Positions 25,605-45,763 of a DNA stretch of 64,000 nucleotides are shown here, one piece after another. Each line of letters starts with the position of its first letter. The first letter of the stretch is position 1. Made by a program: the position numbers and the translations under genes. This stretch comes from Acidobacteriota bacterium. Lineage in GTDB: Bacteria; Acidobacteriota; Aminicenantia; Aminicenantales; UBA4085. The notes beneath the pieces were generated by a model that saw only the letters and a program-made list of their open reading frames with translations, made no database searches and was not told the DNA's origin. The stretch is taken from positions 755 to 64,754 of the forward strand of contig JAQULS010000001.1 in the NCBI GenBank assembly GCA_028749235.1, given 5' to 3'.

Positions 25605-27899
25605 TCAACGGACGACGATTTCGTCGACGAAGATCCAGGCCGCGCCGCCGGCCGAGGCGTGCCAGTCCGGGTTGGTTTTCATCCCCTCGACTTGAAGCCG
25701 TATGAAGCGCGGGCCGGCCGGCGCGACCGTCCACTCGAAGACGCGGACCGTCTCTTCCCGCCGCTGATCGCCGTCGATGATGACGGCGCCCACGGGACGC
25801 CAAGCCGTTCCGTCCGCGGACGCTTCGCACGTCACCCGGCGGGGATGAAAGATCCAGCTCTTGGGGTCGTAAAGCGTGCTGACGGCGATCGTCCGGGCAT
25901 CGCGCCCTTCGCCCAGGTCCAGAACGAGGCTGAAGTCGGTCCCCTCCCAGCCGAGCCAATGGACCTTGAAATCCCCGGCCCCGCGCACGCCGTCGGTGAG
26001 AAGAGCCAAGTCGCCCCGGCCGTACTTGGCCGCCGGCGGCGGATCGGCCGCGACGGGCCGACGGAAGGCCCGGTTGCCCTCGACCTGGACGTCGATGAAG
26101 CGACGGCCGGCATCGTAATAGTCCTTGGGAGTCAGGCCCGATTCATTGAGAGCCCGGACGCCGGCATCCAGGCAGCCCGTGTAAAAACGCTCCAGCAGGC
26201 GCGCCTTCTCCGGCCGCAAAATGAACCGGCCCTCCGTTTCGTCGTAGAATCCGCGCGGCCCGAACAGCTCGGCTTTTCCGATTTCGATCTCGGCGTAGAG
26301 GAACGGGAGCCGGGCCGAACGGACGCGGCGGAGCCGTTCGGGATCGGAGGCGACGGCCGTCTCAGCCAGGTCGAAGGCGGCGGCATAAGCGGCCAGGCGC
26401 TCGGCGGACAGGAAATCATCGGCGTGGGCGTTGGGCGGCTCGTAGATGCCCAGGTCCGTGCCCGAGGCGGCCAGGGACTCCCGGGCCGAGTCGATGACAC
26501 TTCGGATGAAAGGCGCGGCCGCCCCGTAATAGCCGGCCAGAAAATCGTTGACGGCCGCATCGACGTCCCGTTCGGGATTCCAGAGAAGCTTGGCCAGGAG
26601 CCAGCTCTTGAGCTCGGAGAGATCGTGCCCCGGCGAGGTGTTGGTCTGCTGGAAGTGCCGACGGATGCCGTAACCCGAGAAGAAGCGCAGGTTGGGCCGC
26701 AGGACATGAAGGTTGGGAAAAGGCGAGACTTGGTGGGCGAAATCGACGGTGTAGTCCCAGAGGTAGATGTTCTTGGTCAGCCGGCTCCAGTCCCCGATGT
26801 CCCGGACGAAGGAGGCGCTCGCGGGATCCTCGACGATGGGCCGGCTGCGGTTGAGCTCGATCGTGCAGAGCATGATCTGGACATTATCCGCCGGCCTGGT
26901 CAGACGGGGCGCGGGCCGGGAGAATTGATAGGCCAGGGTGGAAATGACCTTATCCGGAAAGCGGGAGGCCAGCCTGTTGACCAGGCGGAGGATCGGCCCG
27001 GCAGGCGAGCCCTCCTCGGCGATGATTTTTTCGCACTCCGGGCAGCGGCAATAAGTGGAATTGTCGTTCTGGCTGACCGACCAGACTCGCTTATCCGGCT
27101 GGGCGGCCATTTCCTTCGCCAGCCGGGCGGCAAGGATGTCGAAGACCTCGGGCCGCGAGGGGCAAAGCTGATCCGCGGTCCGCCGGCCGTTGACCAGGGC
27201 GAAATATTCCGGATGGTCCGCGAAATATTCATCGCGGGGAAGCAAACGGCCGAAGGAGTGGACATAGTAGCCGCGGGCGAATATCTCGTCCGTTTCGTTG
27301 AGCCTCATCCAGTCCCGATAGTCGGCGTCCTGGATGAATTCGCCGTTGACGCAGCGGAAATCGTTGGCCGGGTTGTCCCGATCGAAGACCCGGGGAAGAA
27401 ACAGCGACTCCGAGGCCGGGAAGAAATCGGCCGTGGGGCTGTACTTCCGGCAGCCGAGATATTTTTCGAGCAGATGAACGACGCCATAGATCGAGCCTTT
27501 GCCGCCGCCCGAGACGATGTAGACGGCCCGCTTCGAGACGACGGCCAGGAAGCCGTCCGGATGCAGTCCGGCGTATTGGGACCGGAAGGAGTCCGGGTAG
27601 ACGGATCGGGCGAACCCGAGCCAGACTTCTCCCTCCCGGACGGGGCGGGATTTTTCCACCACGGGCAGGACGGTCCCCGTCATCCGCCGCACGGCCTCCC
27701 GCAGGATTTCGGCCGCCCGGCGGTCGGCTGGAGCCGCTTCGGACGGCAGGACGATCGAACAGGCGGGCCGGCCGTCCCGGACCAGGGGGAATCCGTCCCC
27801 GGCGGGCGAAACGGAAAACCCGCCCGCAAAGGAGAAGGGCGCGGCCAGAGCCGCCAGGATCAAGACGGCGGCCGGGCGGAATCGCCTGGGCTTCGTCAT
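25605..27899 (-). CDS. secreted glycoside-hydrolase-like protein (DUF4838-like catalytic region) with C-terminal F5/8 type C (discoidin) carbohydrate-binding domain
   Basis: Signal peptide MTKPRRFRPAAVLILAALAAPFSFA. 764 aa. C-terminal discoidin-like segment (...KVHWLGWEGTDFSLVLDLGEGRDARTIAV...). Family assignment is by recollection of architecture, not search. Confidence 0.6.
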   Translation of the reverse strand: MTKPRRFRPAAVLILAALAAPFSFAGGFSVSPAGDGFPLVRDGRPACSIVLPSEAAPADRRAAEILREAVRRMTGTVLPVVEKSRPVREGEVWLGFARSVYPDSFRSQYAGLHPDGFLAVVSKRAVYIVSGGGKGSIYGVVHLLEKYLGCRKYSPTADFFPASESLFLPRVFDRDNPANDFRCVNGEFIQDADYRDWMRLNETDEIFARGYYVHSFGRLLPRDEYFADHPEYFALVNGRRTADQLCPSRPEVFDILAARLAKEMAAQPDKRVWSVSQNDNSTYCRCPECEKIIAEEGSPAGPILRLVNRLASRFPDKVISTLAYQFSRPAPRLTRPADNVQIMLCTIELNRSRPIVEDPASASFVRDIGDWSRLTKNIYLWDYTVDFAHQVSPFPNLHVLRPNLRFFSGYGIRRHFQQTNTSPGHDLSELKSWLLAKLLWNPERDVDAAVNDFLAGYYGAAAPFIRSVIDSARESLAASGTDLGIYEPPNAHADDFLSAERLAAYAAAFDLAETAVASDPERLRRVRSARLPFLYAEIEIGKAELFGPRGFYDETEGRFILRPEKARLLERFYTGCLDAGVRALNESGLTPKDYYDAGRRFIDVQVEGNRAFRRPVAADPPPAAKYGRGDLALLTDGVRGAGDFKVHWLGWEGTDFSLVLDLGEGRDARTIAVSTLYDPKSWIFHPRRVTCEASADGTAWRPVGAVIIDGDQRREETVRVFEWTVAPAGPRFIRLQVEGMKTNPDWHASAGGAAWIFVDEIVVR

Positions 27900-31879: not shown

Positions 31880-33244
31880 TCAGGCCGTGATGATGCCCAG
31901 CGGGGGGTTGGTCTTCCACAAGCCGCGGGTGAAGTCGGGGATCGCGACCGGCTTGCCCTTGGCCGCGACGCTGCGGCAGGAAGCCTCGACGACCGCGCTC
32001 CAGGCGGCCGCGTCGTAGACGTCCTGGTCCAGCGGCTCGCCTTTGCGCAGGGACTGGATCAGGCGGTAATCCTCGATGTAATCCATGCCGCCGTGGCCGC
32101 GGCCCTCGCCCTTCGAGGCGATGGCCTTCCATAACGGATGATCGTACTCGGCCGCGAACCTCTCGAAGTCGTCCCAGGCGTGGGCTTTTTCGGCCTTGCC
32201 CTCGACGTAGATCCGGTCGGGCCACTTGTGGGCCAGGCCCTTGGTCCCCTGGACCAGGTTGATGCGGGTATAAGGCCGGGGCAGGTTGGTGTCGTGGATG
32301 AGGATGATCGTCTTGCCCAGCTTGGTCCGGATCAGGGACGTATTGACGTCGCCCAAGACGAATTTCTCGGCCGCCTGGGGAGAGCCGGCGCCGAACTTCT
32401 CGACGGCGTACTCATGCAGCCCCCGCCCGGGCGAGCTCATCGAGACGAGGACGTCGAAGGCGTCGCCCCGGTTGATGTTCATGCACTGGGCCACGGGGCC
32501 GAGGCCGTGGGTCGGATAGAGGTTGCCGTTGAGCTTCTGGGCCCAGGCCCGCCGCCACAGGCCCTCGCCCTCCTTGGAGAACTTGACGTCGCGCAGGTCG
32601 TGCAGGTAGCCCGCCTCGGCGTGCAGGATCTCGCCCAGCAGGCCCTGCCGGACCAGGTTCAAGGTCATAAGCTCGATCCGGTCGTAGCAGCAGTTCTCCA
32701 TCATCTGGCAGTGCTTGCCGTACTTCTCGGCCGTCTCCACCAGGGCCCAGCAGTCGTCCAGGAACATCGCCGCCGGGACCTCGGTCGCGGCGTGCTTGCC
32801 GTTCTTCATGGCCGAGAGGCATACGGGGACATGCCACTCCCAGGGGGTCGCCGTCATGACCAGGTCGAGGTCCTCCTTCTCGCACATCCGCTCGAAGTCG
32901 CGGGGGCCGTTGGAGTAGCCCGCCGGCTTGGGCCGGCCGGCGTCCGTGCACATCTTCTGGGCCCGTTCGACCTTGGCCGGAACGATGTCGCAGATCGCCT
33001 TGATCTCCAGGCCGTCGATAGCCAGGTAGTTTTGGACATGGGACGAGCCCATGCCGCCGACGCCGACGAAGCCGACCCGGACGGTTTCGACCGGGGCCGT
33101 TTTGAACCCAGATCTGGCCTGCCCGGGGCGCGCGTTCGCCTCGCCCGGCAGCGTCAGGCCGGTCAGGGCCGTGCCCGCGGAAAGGACCGCTCCCGTTTTC
33201 AGAAAATCGCGGCGGGTGGTGCTTTGGGAATCATCCATGATCAT
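31880..33244 (-). CDS. TAT-exported Gfo/Idh/MocA family NAD-dependent oxidoreductase (GH109-like glycosidase architecture)
   Basis: Twin-arginine signal TRRDFLKTGAVLSAGTALTG. Rossmann motif VGFVGVGGMGSSH. 454 aa. Confidence 0.8.
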   Translation of the reverse strand: MIMDDSQSTTRRDFLKTGAVLSAGTALTGLTLPGEANARPGQARSGFKTAPVETVRVGFVGVGGMGSSHVQNYLAIDGLEIKAICDIVPAKVERAQKMCTDAGRPKPAGYSNGPRDFERMCEKEDLDLVMTATPWEWHVPVCLSAMKNGKHAATEVPAAMFLDDCWALVETAEKYGKHCQMMENCCYDRIELMTLNLVRQGLLGEILHAEAGYLHDLRDVKFSKEGEGLWRRAWAQKLNGNLYPTHGLGPVAQCMNINRGDAFDVLVSMSSPGRGLHEYAVEKFGAGSPQAAEKFVLGDVNTSLIRTKLGKTIILIHDTNLPRPYTRINLVQGTKGLAHKWPDRIYVEGKAEKAHAWDDFERFAAEYDHPLWKAIASKGEGRGHGGMDYIEDYRLIQSLRKGEPLDQDVYDAAAWSAVVEASCRSVAAKGKPVAIPDFTRGLWKTNPPLGIITA

Positions 33245-33386
33245 GCCTCCGATGCTTCTCGCGCTTCGTCCCCCCGTTTATACCCAATCCGGAATCCCCT
33301 GTAAAGGCGCTTGAGATTCTGGAGCGCCGGTTTGAATCTCGGGGCCTAAAAACGTAAAATGCGGATAGTCTGCTCTATAGCTATCC

Positions 33387-34679
33387 ATGGAAGACACTCT
33401 GTTCGAAAACGGCACGGTGGGCTGCGGCGGAGCCGGTTTCCCCGCCTCGGTCAAGCTCGCCGGGCACGTTGAGACCCTGATCGTCAACGCCGCGGAATGC
33501 GAGCCCCTTCTCCACAAGGATAAGGAGCTGTTGGTCCGCCGCGGCGACGAATTCTTCGCCGGGCTGGCCGAGGCGATGAGGCGGGTGACGGCCCGCCGGG
33601 GGATCATCGCCCTCAAGAAGAAATACGCCGATCTCGCCTCGTCCGTCGCCAAGCGATGCCCGTCGGACGTCGAAGTCCATCTCCTGGACGACGTTTATCC
33701 CGCGGGCGACGAATTCGTCCTGGTCTACGAAGTCACCGGCCGGATCATCGGGCCCGGCGGCCTGCCCAAGGACGTGGACGCCGTGGTCCAGAACGTGGAG
33801 ACGCTGGTCAATATCGGCCTCGCCCGTCCGGTGACCCGCAAGGCCCTGACCGTGGCCGGATTGGTGGCCCGCCCCATGACCCTGGAAGTTCCCGTCGGCG
33901 CGCCGTTCGCGGACATCCTGGCCGCCGCGGGGGGGGCTCTCGAGCCCGATTTCGGCGTCCTCGTCGGCGGAGTCATGATGGGCCGCCTGGCCGGCGATCT
34001 CTCGGAGCCGGTGACCAAGACGACGGCGGGATTGATCGTACTGCCGATAGACCATCCTCTCCTCCGCCGGCATGCCCGGCGTCCGGAGGCCGTGCGGCGG
34101 ATCGCCCGGGCGGCCTGCGACCAATGCACGTTCTGCACCGAGCTGTGCCCCCGCTACCTCCTGAACCATCCCGTCGAGCCCCACCGCGTCATGCGCAGCT
34201 TCGGCCTTGGAATTTCCGCCGACGGCGCCGCCCGCTACGCCCGGTATTGCTCCGGCTGCCGGTTGTGCAGCCTGGCCACCTGCCCCGAAGGGCTCGACCC
34301 ATCGGAGATCTGCGGCCTGGTCAAGAACGCGACCGCGCAGGGAAGCCCCCCCCGCGGCGAGAGCCCGGCCCCGAGGCCCCATCCCCTGCGGTTCGCCCGG
34401 CGCATGCCCACGGCCAGGCTGGTCCGCAAGCTCGGCCTGGAAGGGATGCCCGATCACGCCCCTTGGAGCTCCGTCCGGATCGCCCCGCGCCGCGTCCAGA
34501 TTCCGCTCCGCCAGCACGTCGGCGTGGCGGCCGAGCCGGTGGTGCGGGTCGGGCAAACCGTGAGCGAAGGCGACTGCATCGGACGGATCCCCGCCGGCAA
34601 GCTCGGGGCGCCGGTCCATGCCAGCATCGACGGGCGCGTAGTGTCCGTCGCGGACACGGTCGTGATCGAAGCCGAATAA
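33387..34679 (+). CDS. RnfC/PduS-like flavin- and Fe-S-containing NADH oxidoreductase (microcompartment-associated redox protein)
   Basis: 51-kDa-subunit-like nucleotide-binding site GCGGAGFPASVK. Two 4Fe-4S motifs (CDQCTFCTELCP and CSGCRLCSLATCP). C-terminal barrel-sandwich RnfC_N-like segment (LRQHVGVAAEPVVRVGQTVSEGDCIG...HASIDGRVVSV), i.e. the permuted order seen in PduS. Confidence 0.8.
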   Translation: MEDTLFENGTVGCGGAGFPASVKLAGHVETLIVNAAECEPLLHKDKELLVRRGDEFFAGLAEAMRRVTARRGIIALKKKYADLASSVAKRCPSDVEVHLLDDVYPAGDEFVLVYEVTGRIIGPGGLPKDVDAVVQNVETLVNIGLARPVTRKALTVAGLVARPMTLEVPVGAPFADILAAAGGALEPDFGVLVGGVMMGRLAGDLSEPVTKTTAGLIVLPIDHPLLRRHARRPEAVRRIARAACDQCTFCTELCPRYLLNHPVEPHRVMRSFGLGISADGAARYARYCSGCRLCSLATCPEGLDPSEICGLVKNATAQGSPPRGESPAPRPHPLRFARRMPTARLVRKLGLEGMPDHAPWSSVRIAPRRVQIPLRQHVGVAAEPVVRVGQTVSEGDCIGRIPAGKLGAPVHASIDGRVVSVADTVVIEAE

Positions 34680-34686
34680 GAAAACC

Positions 34687-35247
34687 ATGGACAACATCAA
34701 CAACATCGGGATCATGGAGCTCGGCTCGCTGGCCGCGGGCTACCGGGTCGAAGACGCGCTGCTGAAGACGGCGCCCGTTTCGATCCTGATCGCCCGGCCG
34801 ATCTGCTCGGGCAAGTTCCTGATCGTCGTGGCGGGCTCGGTCGCTTCCGTCAAGGCCTCGCTCGCCGGCGGCATCCGGGTCGGCGGCGAATCGATCATCG
34901 AGCATCGGATCATCAACAACCTGCATCCCGCGGTCCTGCCCGCCCTGGGGCTTGCCGTCGAGATCGGGACGGAATTGCCGGGCGCGCTCGGCATCGTGGA
35001 GACCTTCTCGGCGGCCGCCGCCGTGGAAGCCGCCGACGCGGCCGTCAAGAACGCCCCGATCGGGCTGTTCCGGATCCACTTGGCCATGGCCATGGGCGGG
35101 AAAGGCCTGGTGCTGTTTTGCGGCGGCCTGGGCGACGTCCGGGCCGGGCTGGACGCGGCCGTCGCCGTCATGGCCGAATCGGGCATGCTCGCGGGCAGCG
35201 CCCTGATTTCGGCCCCCTCGGCCGAGCTGCTGCGGGAATACATGTAA
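34687..35247 (+). CDS. BMC-T shell protein, tandem BMC domains, PduT-like (possible Fe-S pore)
   Basis: Two BMC-fold repeats (IGIMELGSLAAGYRVEDALLKTAPV and LGIVETFSAAAAVEAADAAVKNAPIG). Cys in ARPICSGKF, at a position comparable to the PduT cluster ligand. Confidence 0.8.
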   Translation: MDNINNIGIMELGSLAAGYRVEDALLKTAPVSILIARPICSGKFLIVVAGSVASVKASLAGGIRVGGESIIEHRIINNLHPAVLPALGLAVEIGTELPGALGIVETFSAAAAVEAADAAVKNAPIGLFRIHLAMAMGGKGLVLFCGGLGDVRAGLDAAVAVMAESGMLAGSALISAPSAELLREYM

Positions 35248-35259
35248 GGAGACAAGACG

Positions 35260-35988
35260 ATGGCGGGAACATTCGACCGGACAGCCGTCGAGAAGATCGT
35301 GCGGGACGTCCTGCGGGATCTTCCCAAGGCCGAGGGCGCACCGCGCGGTGACGGCCCGGCGACTCCTCTCCCGGTCAATGTATCGGCCCGCCATATCCAC
35401 CTCTGCCGCAAGGACTTCGAAGCGCTCTTCGGCCCGGGCGCCCAACCGACGCTCCTGCGGTCTCTCTATCAGGAGGGCCATTTCGCGGCCCGGGAGACCG
35501 TGGCCATTATCGGCCCCAAGAAGCGGATGATCCCGGAACTCCGCATCCTGGGCCCGCTGCGGGACCATTCGCAGGTCGAGCTGGCCTTCACCGACGTCAT
35601 CCACCTGGGGCTCGAAAACGTCCAAGTCCGCATGTCGGGAGACATCGAGGGCACGCCCGGGGCCTGGATCCAGGGTCCGGCCGGCATGCTGGAGTTGAAG
35701 CAGGGCGTGATCCGGGCGGCCCTGCACGTCCACATGAACGAGCGCGACGCGGCCCGGATGGGGGTCGTCCACAAGGGCTTTCTGGCCCTCCGGGTCGAAA
35801 GCGACGCCCCGGTCGTTTTCGGACGCGTCCACGTCCGCGTCGACCCGTCCTTCAAGCTCGAAGTCCACATGGACACGGACGAGGCCAACGCCTGCCACCT
35901 GGCGGCGGCCCGAAACGTGTCCCTGATTCCCGTACCCGGGAGCATCGAAAGTCCCGACGACATCCACCATAAAGGAGCGCGTGCATGA
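35260..35988 (+). CDS. pduL: phosphate acyltransferase PduL (phosphotransacylase)
   Basis: Two PduL repeats with the signatures VNVSARHIHLCRKDFEALFG and AALHVHMNERDAARMG. RBS aaggaga upstream. Confidence 0.85.
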   Translation: MAGTFDRTAVEKIVRDVLRDLPKAEGAPRGDGPATPLPVNVSARHIHLCRKDFEALFGPGAQPTLLRSLYQEGHFAARETVAIIGPKKRMIPELRILGPLRDHSQVELAFTDVIHLGLENVQVRMSGDIEGTPGAWIQGPAGMLELKQGVIRAALHVHMNERDAARMGVVHKGFLALRVESDAPVVFGRVHVRVDPSFKLEVHMDTDEANACHLAAARNVSLIPVPGSIESPDDIHHKGARA

Positions 35989-36275
35989 GAAAAGCATTGG
36001 GCATGATTGAGACGATCGGCTTCGTCCCCATGCTGGAAGCCACGGATGCGGCCTGCAAGGCCGCCCACGTGACCTTCCTCCATTGGGAGCCGGCCGGTTC
36101 GGGCATGGTCACGGCCTTCTTCGAGGGCGAGGTCGCCGCCGTCAAGGCCGCCGTCGACGCCGGCGCCGAGGCCGCGGCCAAGCTGGGCAAGGTCGTGGCC
36201 GCCCAGGTCATCCCGAATCCGTACCAGGATCTCGAGGCTTTCACCGCGGGGAAGCCCAAGCCCCGGACCGCTTGA
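35985..36275 (+). CDS. BMC-H shell protein (hexamer, PduA/EutM-like)
   Basis: ALGMIETIGFVPMLEATDAACKAAHV is the BMC (Pfam00936-like) core. 96 aa. Confidence 0.85.
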   Translation: MRKALGMIETIGFVPMLEATDAACKAAHVTFLHWEPAGSGMVTAFFEGEVAAVKAAVDAGAEAAAKLGKVVAAQVIPNPYQDLEAFTAGKPKPRTA

Positions 36276-36299
36276 AGCGGGCCGAGCGAGAGGACGCAA

Positions 36300-36581
36300 A
36301 TGAGCAATCAAGCCATCGGCATGCTGGAAACGCGGGGCATGGTCGGGCTGGTCACGGCCGGTGACGCCATGTGCAAGGCCGCCAACGTGACCATGATCCG
36401 GACGGTCGAGATCGGCGGCGGCTTCGTCACCACCGTGGTCAAGGGCGAAGTCGGCAGCGTCAAGGCCGCCGTCGAAGCCGGGCTGCTGACCCTGAAGGCC
36501 GTGGGGGCCGAGATCATCGCCGCCCACGTCATCCCCCAGCCGCACGATTCCACCCTCGGGCTCGTGGACAAGAAAGGCTGA
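36300..36581 (+). CDS. BMC-H shell protein (hexamer, PduA/PduJ-like)
   Basis: AIGMLETRGMVGLVTAGDAMCKAANV. 93 aa. Confidence 0.88.
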   Translation: MSNQAIGMLETRGMVGLVTAGDAMCKAANVTMIRTVEIGGGFVTTVVKGEVGSVKAAVEAGLLTLKAVGAEIIAAHVIPQPHDSTLGLVDKKG

Positions 36582-36594
36582 GGCGCCGGCCGTC

Positions 36595-37767
36595 ATGAAG
36601 ATCCTGGTGCCGAACATCGGCAGCACGTCGTTCAAGTATCGGCTCATCGATATGGACGGCGAGGCCGTGCTCGGCGAGGGCAAGATCGAGCGCATCGGCC
36701 GGCCCGGCGGCGACTGCCCCGATTACCCCGCCGCCATCCGGCGCTGCCTGGACGCGCTGGTCGGCCCGGGCAAGCCGCTGGCCGCCCTGGACGAGCTGTC
36801 GGCCGTGGGCTTCAAGGCCGTTCACGCCCACGGGCTGACGGGCGCCGTGCCCGTGACGCCGGAAGTCCTGGCGGCCATGGAGGAATACGCCTTTCTCCTG
36901 CCGGCCCACAACCCGCCCTATGTCGCGGCCATGAAGGCCTTCGCCGCCGCGGCGCCCACGGTCCCGTCCGTGGCGCTTTTCGAGACGGCCTTTTTCACGG
37001 ACATGCCCGAGGCGGCCTCCATCTACGCCGTGCCTTGGTCGTGGCGGGAGGAGGACGGGGTGCGGCGTTTCGGCTTCCACGGCGCCAGCCACCGCTATGC
37101 CAGCGACCAGGCGCGGCGTCTGGTCGGGCGGGACGGGCTGGCCCACATTTCCTGCCACCTGGGCGGCAGCTCGAGCCTGGCCGCCGTCAAGGACGGCCGG
37201 GCCGTCGACACCAGCTTCGGCATGACCCCCCAGAGCGGCATCCCCCAGAATAACCGGGTCGGAGACGTCGACGTCTTCGCCGTGCTGTATCTCATGAAAA
37301 AACACGGGCTCGGCCCCGACGAGATGGCCCGGACGCTGGCCCAGGAATCCGGGCTGGCCGGCATCTCGGGCCTCAGCGGCGACGTCCGCGACCTCGAGGC
37401 CGCGGCGGCCCGGGGACACGAGCGGGCCCGGCTGGCCCTGGAAGCCTATGTCTACGCCGTGCGCCGCTTCCTGGGGGCCTTCCTGATCGAGCTCGGCAAG
37501 GTCGATGTGATCACCTTCTCCGGCGGCATCGGCGAGCACTCGGCCTGGGTCCGGCGGCGCGTCCTGCGCGGCCTGGAGCCGTTCGGCATCATCCTCGACG
37601 ATCGTCGCAACGAGGCGGCGGAGAAAAACACGCGCATCTCCGCCGAGTCCTCGCCGGCGCAGGTCTGGGTCGTCGAGACCAACGAAGAGATCGTCGTGGC
37701 CCGGGCCGCGGCGGACGTCCTGAAAAGAATCCAAGCGGAAAAATCGGCGGGACGCGCGGCGTCCTGA
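36595..37767 (+). CDS. ackA: acetate/propionate kinase
   Basis: MKILVPNIGSTSFKYRL is the acetokinase N-terminal signature. Also ...VGFHGASHRYA... 390 aa. Confidence 0.88.
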   Translation: MKILVPNIGSTSFKYRLIDMDGEAVLGEGKIERIGRPGGDCPDYPAAIRRCLDALVGPGKPLAALDELSAVGFKAVHAHGLTGAVPVTPEVLAAMEEYAFLLPAHNPPYVAAMKAFAAAAPTVPSVALFETAFFTDMPEAASIYAVPWSWREEDGVRRFGFHGASHRYASDQARRLVGRDGLAHISCHLGGSSSLAAVKDGRAVDTSFGMTPQSGIPQNNRVGDVDVFAVLYLMKKHGLGPDEMARTLAQESGLAGISGLSGDVRDLEAAAARGHERARLALEAYVYAVRRFLGAFLIELGKVDVITFSGGIGEHSAWVRRRVLRGLEPFGIILDDRRNEAAEKNTRISAESSPAQVWVVETNEEIVVARAAADVLKRIQAEKSAGRAAS

Positions 37768-37785
37768 GACAAAGGAGTTCCTATC

Positions 37786-38061
37786 ATGGTGAATCCGGCG
37801 ATCGGAATGATCGAAACGCGGGGCCTGACGGCCCTGGTCATGGCCACCGACGCGATGCTCAAGGCGTCGGCGGTGGAGTTCATGGGCTGGCGGAAGGTCG
37901 GCAGCGGTTTGTGCTCCGCCTACGTCAAGGGCGACGTGGCCGCCGTGCGGACCTCCCTGGACGCCGGCATCGCCATCGCCCGCGAGGTCGGCCAAATCGT
38001 CAACACCCAGGTCCTGTCGCGCCCCCACGACGAGATCCAGGGCATGGTCCCGAAGCGCTGA
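37786..38061 (+). CDS. BMC-H shell protein (hexamer)
   Basis: AIGMIETRGLTALVMATDAMLKASAV. 91 aa. Confidence 0.88.
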   Translation: MVNPAIGMIETRGLTALVMATDAMLKASAVEFMGWRKVGSGLCSAYVKGDVAAVRTSLDAGIAIAREVGQIVNTQVLSRPHDEIQGMVPKR

Positions 38062-38080
38062 CCGGGCGCGGAGTCAAGAC

Positions 38081-38378
38081 CATGCTACTGGCCAAAGTCA
38101 TGGGGACGGTCGTCTCTTCGCAGAAGCACGCCAAGTTCCAGGGTATGAAGCTTTTCCTCATCCAACCCTGCGGTAGCTCCGATAAGAAGCTCGTCCCGCA
38201 GGGCGGCAGCTTGGTCGCCGTCGACTGCGTGACCTGCGGCGTCGGCGACCTGGTCCTCTTCACCCAGGGCAGCTCGGCCCGCATGACCGAGTGCACCAAG
38301 GACAGCCCCGTCGACGCCGTGATCATCGGCATCGTCGATGCCGTCGAGGTCCACGGCAAGCCCCTGGGGAAGCCCTAG
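38081..38378 (+). CDS. BMC-P vertex (pentamer) protein, EutN/PduN/CcmL family
   Basis: MLLAKVMGTVVSSQK... is the typical BMC-P N-terminus. 99 aa from ATG 38081 within a longer track ORF. Confidence 0.8.
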
Positions 38379-38402
38379 CCGGGGAAGGGAGCGCGTTCGG
38401 CC

Positions 38403-39866
38403 ATGATGAGTTTCCCCCCTCCTCCTCCCTACCGCGACCTGGACATCCCGGCCGTCGTGGCCGAGGTCGTCCGCCGGATGTCCGCCGAGCGGGCCGCCGG
38501 AAGCGCCGCGGACGCCGCGGCCGGCCCGGAGCCCGCGCATCCCGGGGCGGACGGCGTCTTCCCGACCGTCGACGAAGCCGTGGCGGCCGCCCGCCGGGCC
38601 CAGCCCAAGCTGGCCGCGCTGACCCTCGACCAGCGGGGCCTCATCGTCGACATCATCAAGAAATACTGCGTGGAAAACGCCGCGGAGCTGGCCCACATGG
38701 AGTTCCAAGAGTCCCGCATCGGGCGGGAGGACCACAAGCTCCAGAAGCTGACCATCATCTCCAAGGTCCTCGGCGTCGAGTCCCTGCGGACCAGGGTCCG
38801 GGTCGACGACACCGGGACCGAGTTCATCGCCGCCGCCCCTTTTGGCGTCATCGGCATGGTCACGCCGGCGACGCACAGCGTCCCGACCATGGCCGGCAAC
38901 GCCATCAACGTCATCGCGGCCGGGAACACGGCCGTCTTTTCGCCCCACCCCGCGGCCAGCCGCTGCCTGCAGTACGCCTTGAAGCAGATCAACCGGAGAA
39001 TCCGGGCCAAAACGGGGCTGGAGAACCTGATCACCACCATGGCCAAGCCGTCCATCGAGGCGGCCGGCGAGCTCTTCCGTCATCCGGGCATCGCCATTCT
39101 CAACATCACCGGCGGCCCGGCCGTCGTCAAGGCGGCCATGAAAGCCGGCAAGCGGGTCATCGCCGCGGCGCCGGGCAACCCGCCCGTCGTCGTCGACGAG
39201 ACCGCCGACATCCCGGCCGCCGTCAAGCACATCATCTTCGGGGCCTCCTTCGACAACAACCTCCTGTGCCTCGGCGACAAGGAGGTCTTCGTCGTCGAAG
39301 CGGTCATGGACGAGTTTATGACAGCCATGCGCCGGGCGGGAGCGGTCGAGCTCGCTCCCGGCCAGATCGAGCGCCTGGCCCAGGCCGCCTTCGTCCTCGA
39401 CAAGGCCTCCGGCGAGCGGCACGTGAACCGCGACTTCGTCGGGAAAAGCGCGGCCGTCCTGGGCCGGGCGGCGGGCGCGATCGTAGCCGACTCCGTCGAC
39501 CTGCTGTTCGGCGAGACGGAGGAGAACCATCTTTTCGTCCAGGAGGAGCAGATGATGCCGTTCCTCCCGATCGTCCGGGTCAAGGACGTCGACGCCGCGA
39601 TCGCGGCGGCCAAGCGGGCCGAGCACGGCTACCATCACTCGGCCATGATCCACACCCGGAACGACGAGACGGCCCGGCGGATGGCCCGCATCCTGGACAC
39701 CACCCTGTTCGTCCGCAACGCGGCCTGCACGGCGGCCCTCGGCGTCGACGGGCCGGGCTACCTGAGCTACAGCATCGCCACGGCCACCGGCGAGGGAGTG
39801 ACGACGCCGCTGACCTTCACCCGCCAGCGGCAGATGATCATCGGCGGCCGCTACGACTATTTTTAA
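38403..39866 (+). CDS. CoA-acylating aldehyde dehydrogenase (PduP/EutE family) with N-terminal encapsulation-peptide-like extension
   Basis: Catalytic Cys context FDNNLLCLGDKEV. PduP-like length (487 aa). N-terminus has a Pro-run (PPPPPY) followed by an amphipathic helix DIPAVVAEVVRRMSAE. Confidence 0.85.
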   Translation: MMSFPPPPPYRDLDIPAVVAEVVRRMSAERAAGSAADAAAGPEPAHPGADGVFPTVDEAVAAARRAQPKLAALTLDQRGLIVDIIKKYCVENAAELAHMEFQESRIGREDHKLQKLTIISKVLGVESLRTRVRVDDTGTEFIAAAPFGVIGMVTPATHSVPTMAGNAINVIAAGNTAVFSPHPAASRCLQYALKQINRRIRAKTGLENLITTMAKPSIEAAGELFRHPGIAILNITGGPAVVKAAMKAGKRVIAAAPGNPPVVVDETADIPAAVKHIIFGASFDNNLLCLGDKEVFVVEAVMDEFMTAMRRAGAVELAPGQIERLAQAAFVLDKASGERHVNRDFVGKSAAVLGRAAGAIVADSVDLLFGETEENHLFVQEEQMMPFLPIVRVKDVDAAIAAAKRAEHGYHHSAMIHTRNDETARRMARILDTTLFVRNAACTAALGVDGPGYLSYSIATATGEGVTTPLTFTRQRQMIIGGRYDYF

Positions 39867-39883
39867 ACCGAGGAGAGAATCCG

Positions 39884-40171
39884 GTGTACCTGGCGAGAAT
39901 CGAGGGCTCGGCGGTGACGACCCTTCACCACAAGAGCCTGGTCGGCCGCAAGCTGCTCATCGCCCGGCGCTGCGAGCCCGACGGCCGTCTGGCGGCCGAG
40001 CCGGTACTGGCCCTCGACGCCGTGGGAGCGGGCCTGGGCGACCTGGTCCTGATCTCCACGGACGGCGAGCTGGCCCGCAGCCTGACCGGCCACAAGACGG
40101 CGCCCGTGCGCCTGACGGCCGTGGGCATCGTCGACGCCGTCGACGGACCGAAGCCGGGAGACATCCGATGA
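39884..40171 (+). CDS. BMC-P vertex (pentamer) protein, second paralog
   Basis: VYLARIEGSAVTTLHHKSLVGRKLLIARR...LISTDGELARSL...AVGIVDAVD. GTG start with RBS aggagag. Hidden in the track as the tail of a spurious 626-aa ORF. Confidence 0.7.
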   Translation: MYLARIEGSAVTTLHHKSLVGRKLLIARRCEPDGRLAAEPVLALDAVGAGLGDLVLISTDGELARSLTGHKTAPVRLTAVGIVDAVDGPKPGDIR

Positions 40172-40461
40172 GGCTGGGCATCGTCAAGGGAACCGTGGTC
40201 CTCGGCCGCGGGCTGGCCGCCCTGGAGGGCACCCGCTACCTGATCATCGAGCCCTTGACGTCGGACGACCTGAAAGCCGGCGCCACCCGGGGAAGCGGCC
40301 GGGAAGTCGTGGCCGCCGATCACCTGGCCCCCGGCCCGGGGCAAATGGTCTGCTTTGAAGAGGGCCGCGAAGCCTGCGCTCCGTGGCTTCCGGCCGGCGT
40401 CCCGATCGACGCCTACGTCAGCGGCATCATCGACTCGATATCCTATCAACCGGCGGAATGA
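40168..40461 (+). CDS. BMC-P vertex (pentamer) protein, third paralog
   Basis: MRLGIVKGTVVLGRGLAALEGTRYLIIEPL... 97 aa. ATGA overlap with the previous gene. Confidence 0.78.
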   Translation: MRLGIVKGTVVLGRGLAALEGTRYLIIEPLTSDDLKAGATRGSGREVVAADHLAPGPGQMVCFEEGREACAPWLPAGVPIDAYVSGIIDSISYQPAE

Positions 40462-40465
40462 CAAC

Positions 40466-41587
40466 ATGAAACAGCTTTCCCTGCGGGGCCAAAACGTGAT
40501 TTCGGGCGCGGTCATCGGCCAGGCGGCGCGCGACGGCTGCACGGAGATCCTCATCGACGGCGACGCGGTCGTCACCTCGCTGGCCCTGGATTCCGCCGCG
40601 ATGGCGGGCATCCGCCTCGTCCGCGAAGGAGACGCCCGCCGCTTCGACGCCCCCGCCGGGGCCTTCGCCGCCGCGGGCGGGCCGGCTTCCCCCGAGGTCC
40701 TGTTTGCGTCCGCCGAGGCGCGGGCCGCCAAGGACGAGATCGTGGCCGTCGGCAGGAAGCTCTGGCAGCGATCCTACGTCGACGGCAACGGCGGCAACAT
40801 CTCCTGCCGGATCGGGGACAAGCACGTCCTGTGCACGCCGACCCTGGTCAGCAAGGGCGACCTTACCCCGGACGACCTCTGCCTGGTCGATCTGGACGGG
40901 AACCAGATCGCGGGCCGCAGGAAAAAGACGAGCGAGATCCTGCTCCACCTGGAGATCATGAAGGCCCAGCCCAAGGCCCGGGCCTGCGTCCATGCCCATC
41001 CCCCGCATGCCACGGCCTACGCCATCACGGGCATGGTGCCGCCCGTGCGGGTCATCCCCGAAGCCGAGATCTTCGTCGGATACGCCGCCTTCGCCCCCTA
41101 CGGCACGCCCGGCACGGCCGACATCTCCCGCCACGTCGTCGAGCTCGTCGCCGACCACAACACCATCCTGCTGGGAAATCACGGCGTCATCTGCTGGGCC
41201 GACACGCCCCTGCGCGCCGAATGGTGCATCGAGATCCTCGAGACCTACTGCCAGACGCTCCTTATCGCCTCGCAGTTGAACGTCCCGATCAAGACGATCC
41301 CCTCGGACAAGTCCGCCGCCCTCCTCGACACCAAGAGAAAGTTGAATCTGCCCGATCCCCGCTTGAGCGGACGGGCATGCGACGGGGAGGACCTCGGGAG
41401 CGAGCTGACCGGCATCACCGTCTGCCCGGGCGCCTGCGCCGCCGGCAACGGCCCCTGCCGGCTGAACGGATCGTGCGACTGCCCGCGGGAGCGGACCGGG
41501 ACGCCGGTTCCGAAGCGCGCGAGCGGCGAATCCGAGGCCCTGATCGGCCGCATCGTCGACGAGGTCATGAAGGCCCTCGGCCGATAG
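40466..41587 (+). CDS. class II aldolase/adducin-family protein (fuculose/rhamnulose-1-phosphate aldolase-like) with N-terminal extension, Cys-rich C-terminal segment and terminal encapsulation-peptide-like helix
   Basis: Aldolase core (WQRSYVDGNGGNISCR, HAHPPHATAYAI, LLGNHGVICW). Extra 80 aa at the N-terminus. C-terminal CPGACAAGNGPCRLNGSCDCP then EALIGRIVDEVMKALGR. Confidence 0.8.
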   Translation: MKQLSLRGQNVISGAVIGQAARDGCTEILIDGDAVVTSLALDSAAMAGIRLVREGDARRFDAPAGAFAAAGGPASPEVLFASAEARAAKDEIVAVGRKLWQRSYVDGNGGNISCRIGDKHVLCTPTLVSKGDLTPDDLCLVDLDGNQIAGRRKKTSEILLHLEIMKAQPKARACVHAHPPHATAYAITGMVPPVRVIPEAEIFVGYAAFAPYGTPGTADISRHVVELVADHNTILLGNHGVICWADTPLRAEWCIEILETYCQTLLIASQLNVPIKTIPSDKSAALLDTKRKLNLPDPRLSGRACDGEDLGSELTGITVCPGACAAGNGPCRLNGSCDCPRERTGTPVPKRASGESEALIGRIVDEVMKALGR

Positions 41588-43475: not shown

Positions 43476-44198
43476 TCATTCGGCGGCGATGGCGTTGAGC
43501 GCCTTGCGCCGCTCCTTCCAATCCGGCAGGCACCGGGCCAATAGCGAGTAGAAAGACGCGCCGTGGTCGTGATGCTTGAGGTGGCAGAGCTCGTGCAGGA
43601 CGACGTACTCGACGAGAGACGGAGCCGTTTGCACCAGGCGGGTATTGAAGACGATGCGCCCGTCCCGGCCGCAGCTCCCCCAGCGCCTTTTCATCCAGCG
43701 GAGAGACCACGGCGGCGCGGCGAGGCCGCCGAAGGGATCCGCCTCCAAGCCCCGGTCCAGGGCCGCCGCGAGAACCTGCCCGGCCCGCCGCTTAAGCCAG
43801 GATTCGATCCTGCGGCGGACGGCCTCCCGGTCATGGATGTCCGCGACGGGCACGACGAGAACGCCGTCCGCGAATGCCGCCCGCCTGGCCCGGCCCGGCT
43901 CGATCTTCACGGGATAGGTTTGGCCGAGGATCGAGATCAGGCCCGTTTCGGCGGACTTCGCCGGGGCATGCAATCGGATGCGGGTTTCGCTCTTTCGGAC
44001 GGCGCGTTCGATCCAGGCGGCCTTCTCGCGGGCGAAGGCCAGGACCCGGGCCGGAGCGACGCCGCGGGGGACGGAGGCCCGGACGCGGCCGTCGTCGAGA
44101 ACGGCAATCCGTATCCGCCGCCCCTTGCCCCGCTCCAGAGAAAGGGGGATTTTCCGGGAAGCCGTCTCGAGGATCAGGGTTTCCGCCGCGGGCCTCAC
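43476..44198 (-). CDS. M48-family/DUF45 (YgjP-like) metal-dependent hydrolase
   Basis: HELCHLKHHDH zinc-binding HExxH context near the C-terminus. 240 aa. Confidence 0.75.
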   Translation of the reverse strand: MRPAAETLILETASRKIPLSLERGKGRRIRIAVLDDGRVRASVPRGVAPARVLAFAREKAAWIERAVRKSETRIRLHAPAKSAETGLISILGQTYPVKIEPGRARRAAFADGVLVVPVADIHDREAVRRRIESWLKRRAGQVLAAALDRGLEADPFGGLAAPPWSLRWMKRRWGSCGRDGRIVFNTRLVQTAPSLVEYVVLHELCHLKHHDHGASFYSLLARCLPDWKERRKALNAIAAE

Positions 44199-45763
44199 CC
44201 GAGAAGCTTCCTCTTCTTCAGCCAGCGCTCGCGCAGGCGGACGCTGTCCAGGCCGAGGCAGGCGCCGCCGGACAGGGGATTCTTGCCCAGGCCTTCGAAG
44301 CGCAGGGTGTGCTTGCCCGTCTTCAGGGTGTAGCTCCCCAGGTAGTGCTCCTGGACGAAGAGCGTCTTGGCGTAGAGGTCGTAGTCCTTGGTCTTCTGGC
44401 CGGCCATGTAGTCCTCGGGCTGACCGATGACCTTGCCGTCCAGGAAGATGCGCCAGATGCCGGAATTCTCGGCATGGGTCAGCCAGAGCATGAGGCCTCG
44501 GTACTCTTCCTTGTCCACCGTGAACTCGACTTCGAACACGGGATGGTCGAAGACGGGCTGGAAGAGGATCTGCCCCTCCCCCGTCCAGTCGTAGCCCTTC
44601 TCGAGGCTCACGACCCCGTCCGAGTGCTTGGCCGTCGGGAGCATGGTCTTGGCTTCGATCACCCGGTCGAGCTCGGGCAGGATCCGGTCCGCGAGCGGCG
44701 GCAGTTTGGTGAACCGCTTGGGCTGGCCGATCTGGTACCAGAAGGCGACCGTGGCGATATCGTCCTCGCGCTCGACGTGGCCCTCGGTCTTGCCGCTCTC
44801 CGTCTCGTCGCCGGTGATCCAGCCGGTGTGCTCGATCTCGAAGCGCAGCGACTTGGTGAAGCGGACCGGATCCGGGATGTGCCAGCGGTAGAGCGTGTAG
44901 CGGGCCCCCAGGTCCTCGAAGTCCGGGCTCATGAAGGTGCAGCCGAAATAAGGATAGAGGGCCTGGTTCAAGCCCCAGGCCATCAGGAAATAGTCCTCCG
45001 TCCCCGTGCCCTGAATGCTCGGCTTCGCGTCGCCGTCGACGTAAAACTTGGCGTCGCCCTCGCCGAACCAGAAGGGGCTGCGGGAGCGCGCCGAAAGGAC
45101 GGTGCCGATGTAATGCCCTTCGCCCTCGGCGTCCAGGATCAGGTAGTCGTGCCCCGTCTTCTCGGGGAACTCGTTGCGGTACTGGGCGCAGAAATATCCC
45201 GTCCGGGGCGGCACGGGCTGCTCGGTGTAGTCGATGTGATAGTAGAAGGAGCGGACGTTCTTGGCTCCTTCATTGGTCACGGTGATGAGGCCGCGCTTAT
45301 GGAAAGGCATCGGAAAGTAGACGTTGTAGCCGTCGCCGCCCTCGACCATCATCGGCAGGGAGGCGATCTCGCGCCGCGCGCCGAAGCCCGCGGCGAAGAA
45401 GTCGCCGAGCGGCGCCTCGACCGCCGGCTCCTTGGCGTCGTCCCAGTACATCCGCAGGACGATCTCGTCGGGGCGGGCCGAGCCGGTCGGCTCCAGCCAG
45501 TTCGGCCGGGCCTCGTTGAAGGTCAGCCAGATGTGGTTGATCACCGCCGGTCCCTTGATGTCGGCCAGGACCTTGGTCTCGCCGGGGACGATGTACCGGA
45601 CGCGGTCGCCGTTGCCGGCCGGATTCGGATCGGCGGACGTGACCGCTTTCGACCGGCCCGGCTGGATTTGGGCCAACCCGGCCAGGTCTTGCGCGGACAG
45701 CCCGGCGGCGACGAGAAGCAGGAACCCGGCCGTCAGGAGACGGCGGGAGACGAATGAGCGCAT
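44195..45763 (-). CDS. secreted DUF2961 domain protein (family reported as glycoside hydrolase GH172)
   Basis: Signal peptide. Conserved DUF2961-like regions (GTGTEDYFLMAWG, YRWHIPDPVRF). 522 aa. Family call from memory of motif pattern. Confidence 0.6.
   Translation of the reverse strand: MRSFVSRRLLTAGFLLLVAAGLSAQDLAGLAQIQPGRSKAVTSADPNPAGNGDRVRYIVPGETKVLADIKGPAVINHIWLTFNEARPNWLEPTGSARPDEIVLRMYWDDAKEPAVEAPLGDFFAAGFGARREIASLPMMVEGGDGYNVYFPMPFHKRGLITVTNEGAKNVRSFYYHIDYTEQPVPPRTGYFCAQYRNEFPEKTGHDYLILDAEGEGHYIGTVLSARSRSPFWFGEGDAKFYVDGDAKPSIQGTGTEDYFLMAWGLNQALYPYFGCTFMSPDFEDLGARYTLYRWHIPDPVRFTKSLRFEIEHTGWITGDETESGKTEGHVEREDDIATVAFWYQIGQPKRFTKLPPLADRILPELDRVIEAKTMLPTAKHSDGVVSLEKGYDWTGEGQILFQPVFDHPVFEVEFTVDKEEYRGLMLWLTHAENSGIWRIFLDGKVIGQPEDYMAGQKTKDYDLYAKTLFVQEHYLGSYTLKTGKHTLRFEGLGKNPLSGGACLGLDSVRLRERWLKKRKLLG

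Follow-up and report, generated by a model that had tools for sequence, protein, structure and literature searches.

We analyzed a 64,000-nt stretch of contig JAQULS010000001.1 (assembly GCA_028749235.1, positions 755 to 64,754, forward strand), hereafter the window, from the metagenome-assembled genome (MAG) of an Acidobacteriota bacterium. Its G+C content is about 67%. Twelve open reading frames (ORFs) at 33387-41587 on the + strand, spaced by -4 to +24 bp, form one 8.2-kb operon of bacterial microcompartment (BMC) genes (Table 1). They encode, in order, a PduS-like flavoprotein, a PduT-like BMC-T shell protein, the phosphotransacylase PduL, two BMC-H shell proteins, acetate kinase (AckA), a third BMC-H, a BMC-P shell protein, a CoA-acylating aldehyde dehydrogenase (AldDH), two more BMC-P proteins, and a class II aldolase. 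An earlier note on this DNA, made without database searches, had called a 12-gene microcompartment locus here, and its coordinates and gene list were correct, with all 12 proteins scoring above the Pfam gathering scores. The shell calls in the note also held in a hidden Markov model (HMM) search, which placed four PF00936 proteins (three BMC-H and one BMC-T) and three PF03319 proteins above those scores. Pfam and NCBIfam together uphold the proposed architecture of aldolase, acylating AldDH, PduL, AckA, and three BMC-P. The NCBIfam cut-offs were cleared by AldDH (PRK15398, 533 versus 403 bits), PduL (NF011652, 222 versus 209), and AckA (TIGR00016, 310 versus 293). Judged from its sequence, the 12-gene block is a complete metabolosome locus organized as a single operon.

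Table 1. Features of the microcompartment operon and its upstream region (window coordinates).
Feature	Position	Strand	Support and remarks
Sigma-70-like promoter candidate, TTGAAT-17-TAAAAT	33332..33360	+	9/12 consensus matches; weak evidence
PduS-type flavoprotein (predicted MNdh), 430 aa	33387..34679	+	Complex1_51K (PF01512) / SLBB (PF10531) / Fer4_17 / RnfC_N (PF13375)
PduT-type tandem-domain shell trimer (predicted BMC-T^SE), 186 aa	34687..35247	+	Two PF00936 stretches
PduL-type phosphotransacylase, 242 aa	35260..35988	+	PTAC, E = 1e-63; NF011652
BMC-H paralog 1, 96 aa	35985..36275	+	PF00936, 89.9 bits; KAAH / PNPY interface motifs
BMC-H paralog 2, 93 aa	36300..36581	+	PF00936; KAAN / PQPH
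Acetate/propionate-family kinase, 390 aa	36595..37767	+	PF00871, 317 bits; TIGR00016
BMC-H paralog 3, 91 aa	37786..38061	+	PF00936; KASA / SRPH
BMC-P paralog 1, 98 aa	38082..38378	+	EutN_CcmL PF03319, 95.7 bits; ATG start
CoA-acylating aldehyde dehydrogenase (AldDH), 487 aa	38403..39866	+	Aldedh; PRK15398
BMC-P paralog 2, 95 aa	39884..40171	+	EutN_CcmL PF03319; GTG start after GAGGAG
BMC-P paralog 3, 97 aa, most divergent	40168..40461	+	PF03319, 50.9 bits; 4-bp overlap with paralog 2
Class II aldolase, signature enzyme, 373 aa, four modules	40466..41587	+	Aldolase_II PF00596, 154 bits

Related loci were collected by a scan with an alignment of the aldolase, keeping one genome per species, and the ORFs of the resulting 80 loci were then searched with the window proteins. 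Nearly all of these loci belong to Acidobacteriota, among them Acidobacteriaceae, Terracidiphilus, Granulicella, Bryobacteraceae, Solibacteraceae, and Vicinamibacterales. A peat-fen MAG labelled Aminicenantes (GCA_003141555.1) has the identical 12-gene order, with flanks entirely unlike those of the window. Because the operon is conserved gene for gene in this relative, whose aldolase is 77% identical to that of the window, it is under selection and not a chance run of ORFs. PduS, PduT, and PduL occur together in about 48 of the 80 loci, and nearly all of those 48 also hold AckA, three BMC-H, three BMC-P, AldDH, and the aldolase. The pduS-pduT pair is divergently transcribed beside the core genes in 37 of the 48 and co-directional with them in 11, the window included. 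Within the window operon the three BMC-H proteins share 41-43% identity and the three BMC-P proteins 25-38%, BMC-P paralog 2 being 38% identical to paralog 1 and 25% to paralog 3. These low mutual identities mark both sets as distinct paralogs rather than recent duplicates.

The first two genes of the operon, separated by 7 bp, resemble a known electron-export module. The PduS-type protein has the domain order PF01512, PF10531, 4Fe-4S (Fer4_17), and PF13375, so that the RnfC_N barrel is C-terminal, and its NCBIfam alignment to RnfC is confined to positions 129-415. It carries a GCGGAGFP nucleotide/flavin mononucleotide (FMN) motif and two CxxCxxCxxxC [4Fe-4S] motifs at amino acids (aa) 244-254 and 288-299, and the eight cluster cysteines are retained in 46-47 of 47 orthologs. 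The PduT-type protein has eut_PduT as its best NCBIfam match, below the cut-off, and a pore cysteine, Cys40 (34804-34806), in the motif ICSGK; this cysteine is present in all 48 orthologs. In the published module, a flavoprotein named MNdh with a permuted four-domain order, two [4Fe-4S] motifs, and a C-terminal PF13375 barrel is encoded next to BMC-T^SE, a BMC-T with a conserved pore cysteine, the two genes being adjacent in 97% of loci (PMC11626177; Sutter et al. 2024, PNAS). The same study counted 2,172 loci with the module out of about 7,000, among them PVM (Planctomycetes/Verrucomicrobia), ACI, MIC, and MUF types, and explained it as a means of regenerating NAD+, with experiments that support both NADH oxidation and the export of electrons through the shell. 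Oxidation of NADH and passage of electrons onto the Fe-S cluster of the shell were both demonstrated for the C. botulinum pair only. In the BMC-T tree of the microcompartment catalog (Sutter et al. 2021), a 'T_pvm' clade unites planctomycete PVM and acidobacterial proteins. The window pair shares the permuted four domains, the two [4Fe-4S] motifs, and the adjacent Cys-pore BMC-T with the published module, and its locus likewise has an AldDH and no alcohol dehydrogenase. We therefore assign pduS-pduT as a predicted MNdh/BMC-T^SE module. The earlier note had regarded the pair as an undescribed addition to this kind of locus; the module is in fact published, is listed for MIC4 and MUF3 in the catalog tables, and has been placed, by the catalog BMC-T tree and the 2024 study, in main or satellite loci of PVM and ACI.

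Encapsulation peptides are confirmed, at the level of sequence, on three predicted cargo enzymes. AldDH has an N-terminal peptide at aa 12-29, DLDIPAVVAEVVRRMSAE, with a low-complexity linker after it, and an alignment of 27 orthologs shows the peptide and the variable linker to be conserved. PduL also carries an N-terminal peptide (aa 6-21, FDRTAVEKIVRDVLRD), an amphipathic helix conserved among orthologs and followed by a variable low-complexity linker. The peptide of the aldolase is C-terminal (aa 356-373, nt 41531-41584), again a conserved amphipathic helix, here preceded by the variable linker. For PduL and the aldolase, the encapsulation peptide has the highest helical hydrophobic moment of the whole protein. 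An amphipathic helix with a variable linker is the published signature of such peptides, and the position on each enzyme in the window agrees with the published one. The note had named the AldDH and aldolase peptides, both of which are conserved in orthologs, and had overlooked the one on PduL as well as an N-terminal mini-domain on the aldolase. No terminal extension was seen on the acetate kinase. The window PduL is related to the R. palustris PduL of structure 5CUO, and a PDB sequence search with PduL matched only R. palustris entries and no planctomycete structure.

Compartments of this kind have the class II aldolase as their signature enzyme, and the statement in the note that no signature enzyme is present was a misnomer. 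Pfam covers only the catalytic domain (aa 91-265), whose metal ligands are E157, H176, H178, and H239; the class II catalytic Glu/His residues are invariant in the ortholog alignment. Ahead of it, aa 1-55 (nt 40466-40630) form a conserved mini-domain in which T37 and A40 never vary across 84 sequences. An AlphaFold2 (AF2) model of the mini-domain has a beta-alpha-beta-alpha-beta arrangement (pLDDT about 93 for residues 11-50). The fold is small and of a generic alpha/beta kind, and a search with it against the PDB gave nothing better than E = 0.06. The mini-domain has no Pfam model. A profile search with it found 1,218 proteins among 1.84 billion representatives. These include small proteins of one to three copies and fusions to PduL, EutT-type adenosyltransferase, EutQ cupin, flavoprotein-like TIGR02536 proteins, and enoyl-CoA hydratase. 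NCBIfam places the mini-domain at the N-termini of EutQ and EutT and at the C-termini of PduM and TIGR02536. Its distribution points to a recurrent microcompartment-associated module, and on the aldolase it probably serves as a second device for tethering or assembly. Past the catalytic domain and ahead of the C-terminal peptide is a Cys-rich insertion (aa ~300-345, nt 41363-41500; VCPGAC...GPC...SCDCP) that is found only in the close clade of the window aldolase. Its members have four to six cysteines there; the window protein has six, four of them conserved. Aldolase linkers enriched in cysteine have been described previously. The insertion could bind metal or be redox-active beside the Fe-S export pair.

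We compared the locus with catalogued microcompartment types by gene content, gene order, and published descriptions, which supports a provisional type assignment. The closest gene content is that of MIC4. In Supplementary Data 2 of the catalog, MIC4 is given an AldDH with an N-terminal peptide, PTAC, a PF00596 aldolase, and a PF00871 kinase, with a shell of a BMC-P triplet, one to three BMC-H, and PduS beside a Cys-pore PduT-type BMC-T. All of these are present in the window, and the gene content is identical (AldDH, PTAC, aldolase, kinase, BMC-P triplet, BMC-H, and PduS/PduT). The difference lies in the host, as the phyla listed there for MIC4 are Actinobacteria, Bacteroidetes, Calditrichaeota, KSB1, Firmicutes, and Ignavibacteria, with Acidobacteria not among them. 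The catalog entries also put the MIC4 AldDH closest to those of MUF2 and MUF3 and its BMC-P proteins in the green, grey, and orange clades.

The PVM type of Planctopirus limnophila (Erbilgin et al. 2014) shares with the window the enzyme core, the BMC-P triplet, and the C-terminal peptide of the aldolase. The gene order agrees as well, as the comparison proposed in the note bears out: from pduL to the aldolase, the window order pduL-H-H-ackA-(H)-P-aldDH-P-P-aldolase tracks the PVM letters B, D, E, G, H, J, K, M, and N, provided that the letters of the catalog HMM table follow gene order. According to later papers and the catalog tables, PVM loci are confined to Planctomycetes and Verrucomicrobia, have two BMC-H and three BMC-P, encode PvmO of the lactate/malate-dehydrogenase type, and usually have a DeoR regulator. 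The window differs from PVM in PvmO, shell count, and taxon. It has neither PvmO nor DeoR, contains a third BMC-H and a BMC-T, and has pduS-pduT at the head of the operon; its source and nearly all of its relatives are Acidobacteriota.

Two further labels were considered and rejected. ACI is the catalogued Acidobacteria-specific type and has in common with the window the phylum, the C-terminal encapsulation peptide of the aldolase, the BMC-P triplet, and the PduS/PduT pair, which is occasional in ACI. In the catalog entries, the main ACI locus includes a hydroxyacid dehydrogenase along with three unknown-family proteins, the AldDH is on a satellite locus and has a near-C-terminal encapsulation peptide, and PTAC and acetate kinase are not listed. 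Membership was rejected on gene content, as the window lacks the hydroxyacid dehydrogenase and the unknowns and has its AldDH in the operon with an N-terminal peptide. The label 'PVM-like', applied to the locus in the note, already names a Firmicutes, GRM5-related type in the published classification. It is excluded by definition, the window having a BMC-P triplet, MNdh, and an Acidobacteriota host. As precisely as the evidence allows, the locus is PVM-related with MIC4 gene content in Acidobacteria.

It is a further example, from Acidobacteria, of a known kind of metabolosome, with a gene set and an electron-export pair that have already been described. The literature searched yielded no description of this acidobacterial form, and the catalog supplements returned no match to the acidobacterial genera of our set, which falls short of proving absence. 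A bolder view is that the loci represent an uncatalogued, phylum-wide acidobacterial subtype of aldolase metabolosome. It would combine a PVM-ordered core, MNdh/BMC-T^SE in the main locus, no alcohol dehydrogenase, and the aldolase mini-domain as a second targeting or scaffolding device, and it would serve as a main route for rhamnose and fucose (from pectin and exopolysaccharide) in peat and soil Acidobacteria. We hold this view tentatively and consider it slightly more apt to be wrong than right.

The operon probably encodes an aldolase-signature metabolosome that converts a deoxy-ketose 1-phosphate via lactaldehyde to lactate, with NAD+ recycled by MNdh/BMC-T^SE. In this scheme L-rhamnulose-1-phosphate or L-fuculose-1-phosphate, the most likely substrates, would be produced in the cytosol, through an isomerase and a kinase whose genes lie elsewhere, and would then enter the shell. 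The class II aldolase would cleave the sugar phosphate to dihydroxyacetone phosphate and L-lactaldehyde. The trapped lactaldehyde would be oxidized by AldDH with CoA and NAD+ to lactyl-CoA and NADH, after which PduL would form lactyl-phosphate and recycle the CoA. The kinase, probably outside the shell, would yield lactate and ATP. As the operon has no alcohol dehydrogenase, NAD+ would be regenerated by MNdh, which would oxidize NADH and pass the electrons via FMN and its two [4Fe-4S] clusters to the cluster in the BMC-T^SE pore, from which they would reach a putative cytosolic acceptor. No propanediol by-product would be formed. The homologous PVM compartment was reported to be necessary for growth on fucose and rhamnose, via lactaldehyde, and we infer that fuculose/rhamnulose-1-phosphate is used here too.

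Several observations weigh against this scheme, most of them concerning the substrate. The aldolase reaches none of the NCBIfam equivalog cut-offs; it scores highest against 3-oxo-tetronate-4-phosphate decarboxylase (115 bits) and archaeal FucA (99 bits), with a cut-off of 250 for each. Since no equivalog threshold was passed, its substrate is deduced from context. A tblastn search of the 64-kb window, with FucI, an FGGY kinase, a RhaEW-like fusion, and two DeoR proteins of related loci as queries, had working positive controls and no hits; the window has no fucose or rhamnose isomerase, FGGY kinase, or DeoR and so itself gives no evidence on the substrate. Beside the related loci, where the flanks were probed with rhamnose- and fucose-pathway queries and a Pfam census of the 142 nearest flanking ORFs rather than for every pathway, sugar-pathway genes stand next to a minority only. 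The electron-export pair also differs slightly from the published one: its pore motif reads CSGK in 47 of 48 acidobacterial orthologs where CP(G/S)K was published, a lineage-wide Pro-to-Ser change beside the cluster-binding cysteine.

The scores of the aldolase and the lack of fucose and rhamnose genes in the window would suit a compartment of the same architecture with another substrate, such as D-ribulose-1-phosphate or L-xylulose-1-phosphate cleaved to glycolaldehyde, 5-deoxy-ribulose-1-phosphate cleaved to acetaldehyde, or an enzyme with decarboxylase or epimerase activity. The best NCBIfam score is against a decarboxylase, promiscuity has been described for class II aldolases, and MIC4, MUF2, and MUF3 stand as types of 'unknown function' in the catalog tables. 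The invariant Glu/His pattern of the class II aldolases argues the other way, as do the collinearity of the operon with the fucose/rhamnose PVM operon and the DeoR regulator, which adjoins at least 32 of 56 related loci. Flanks of relatives point in the same direction. One Vicinamibacteria locus is flanked by a fucose isomerase, an aldolase-short-chain-dehydrogenase fusion, an FGGY kinase, and DeoR, and the Pfam census counted RhaA three times (E = 2e-212), FGGY twice, GH28 and rhamnogalacturonase-like proteins four times each, PL4 twice, and the lactate-utilisation family LUD twice. This substrate signal from the related loci is real but thin. On balance we regard a different substrate as unlikely.

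A second alternative accepts the lactaldehyde route and differs in how NAD+ is recycled. A lactaldehyde reductase encoded elsewhere, PvmO-like or an Fe-dependent alcohol dehydrogenase, would do so in the canonical PVM style, and PduS/PduT would be only a conditional accessory. Both systems occur together in 1,725 catalogued loci, and 18 of the 20 PVM occurrences of the module are in satellite loci, suggesting conditional use (PMC11626177); our view of the genome, moreover, spans 64 kb. However, the pair and the core genes are physically linked in 48 related loci, and no dehydrogenase recurs in the operon or within 8 kb of it across 56 related loci. Absence of an alcohol dehydrogenase also has precedent in 361 published module loci (PMC11626177). 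Recycling by a distant reductase therefore seems to us somewhat less likely still than a different substrate. The role first proposed for PduS in Pdu compartments, that of a cobalamin reductase serving a B12 enzyme, survives in the historical annotation of the protein. The operon encodes no B12-dependent enzyme, adenosyltransferase, or reactivase, and the 2024 study argues against such a role in B12-free compartment types (PMC11626177), which leaves this explanation highly improbable. The preferred reading remains a deoxy-sugar metabolosome that would export its electrons through MNdh/BMC-T^SE.

Acidobacteria are among the most abundant bacteria of soil and peat, and most of them are uncultured. 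If the preferred reading is true, an electron-exporting deoxy-sugar organelle that forms no propanediol would affect how polysaccharide carbon is modelled in these habitats. The locus would also be a natural test case for MNdh/BMC-T^SE, with no alcohol dehydrogenase able to compensate. Sharing of the mini-domain among the aldolase, EutQ, EutT, PduM, and fusions of PduL is a hint that microcompartments have a general assembly module not yet modelled. The current understanding of microcompartments would be unchanged, with known types extended to another phylum.

Some of the related loci are organized differently. Several genomes of Bryobacterales and Solibacteraceae encode the aldolase together with AldDH, and in some cases also PduL, at a site with no shell gene within 10 kb (loci L011, L017, L021, L027, L030, L043, L044, L048, L053, L055, and L062 of our set). 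The shell genes of these bacteria must be encoded elsewhere, in a split or satellite organization, and the loci may correspond to the catalog ACI entries for Solibacter and SbA3. Acidobacterial-type aldolase loci also appear under the labels of other phyla (L030, L053 (Arcobacter), L063 (Hyphomicrobium), and L069 (Verrucomicrobiia)), which suggests mis-binned contigs or horizontal transfer of the module. An AldDH homolog in a Solibacter MAG, P0181, is solitary and without shell genes, and is uninformative.

The genes on either side of the window operon had been taken in the earlier note as fitting a glycan-foraging lifestyle. The named genes are present, all on the - strand: a DUF4838 gene with a weak discoidin match (25605-27899), a GH109-like gene with a twin-arginine translocation (TAT) signal (31880-33244), and a DUF2961 gene (44195-45763). 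They are interspersed with housekeeping genes (YchF, RuvAB, QueA, and M28 and tricorn peptidases), and none of the three was found conserved beside the operon in relatives. Clustering of flanking ORFs gave DeoR as the sole recurrent flanking gene. Because only DeoR recurs near the 56 related loci, we gave the flank argument little weight; the three proteins are compatible with a polysaccharide-degrading lifestyle, and the evidence from them is weak.

Scans of the window for tRNA and Rfam families found no RNA genes, and terminator-like hairpins 3' of the operon are no commoner than expected by chance. The promoter candidate in Table 1 falls in the 142-bp gap 5' of the first operon gene, and two sigma-70-like sites were observed in the region against 0.7 expected. 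A long ORF on the + strand at 43874-45757 has no Pfam match, and the true gene there is the overlapping DUF2961 ORF on the - strand, with a third-position GC of 0.91. The pair illustrates the many spurious long ORFs of this high-GC window.

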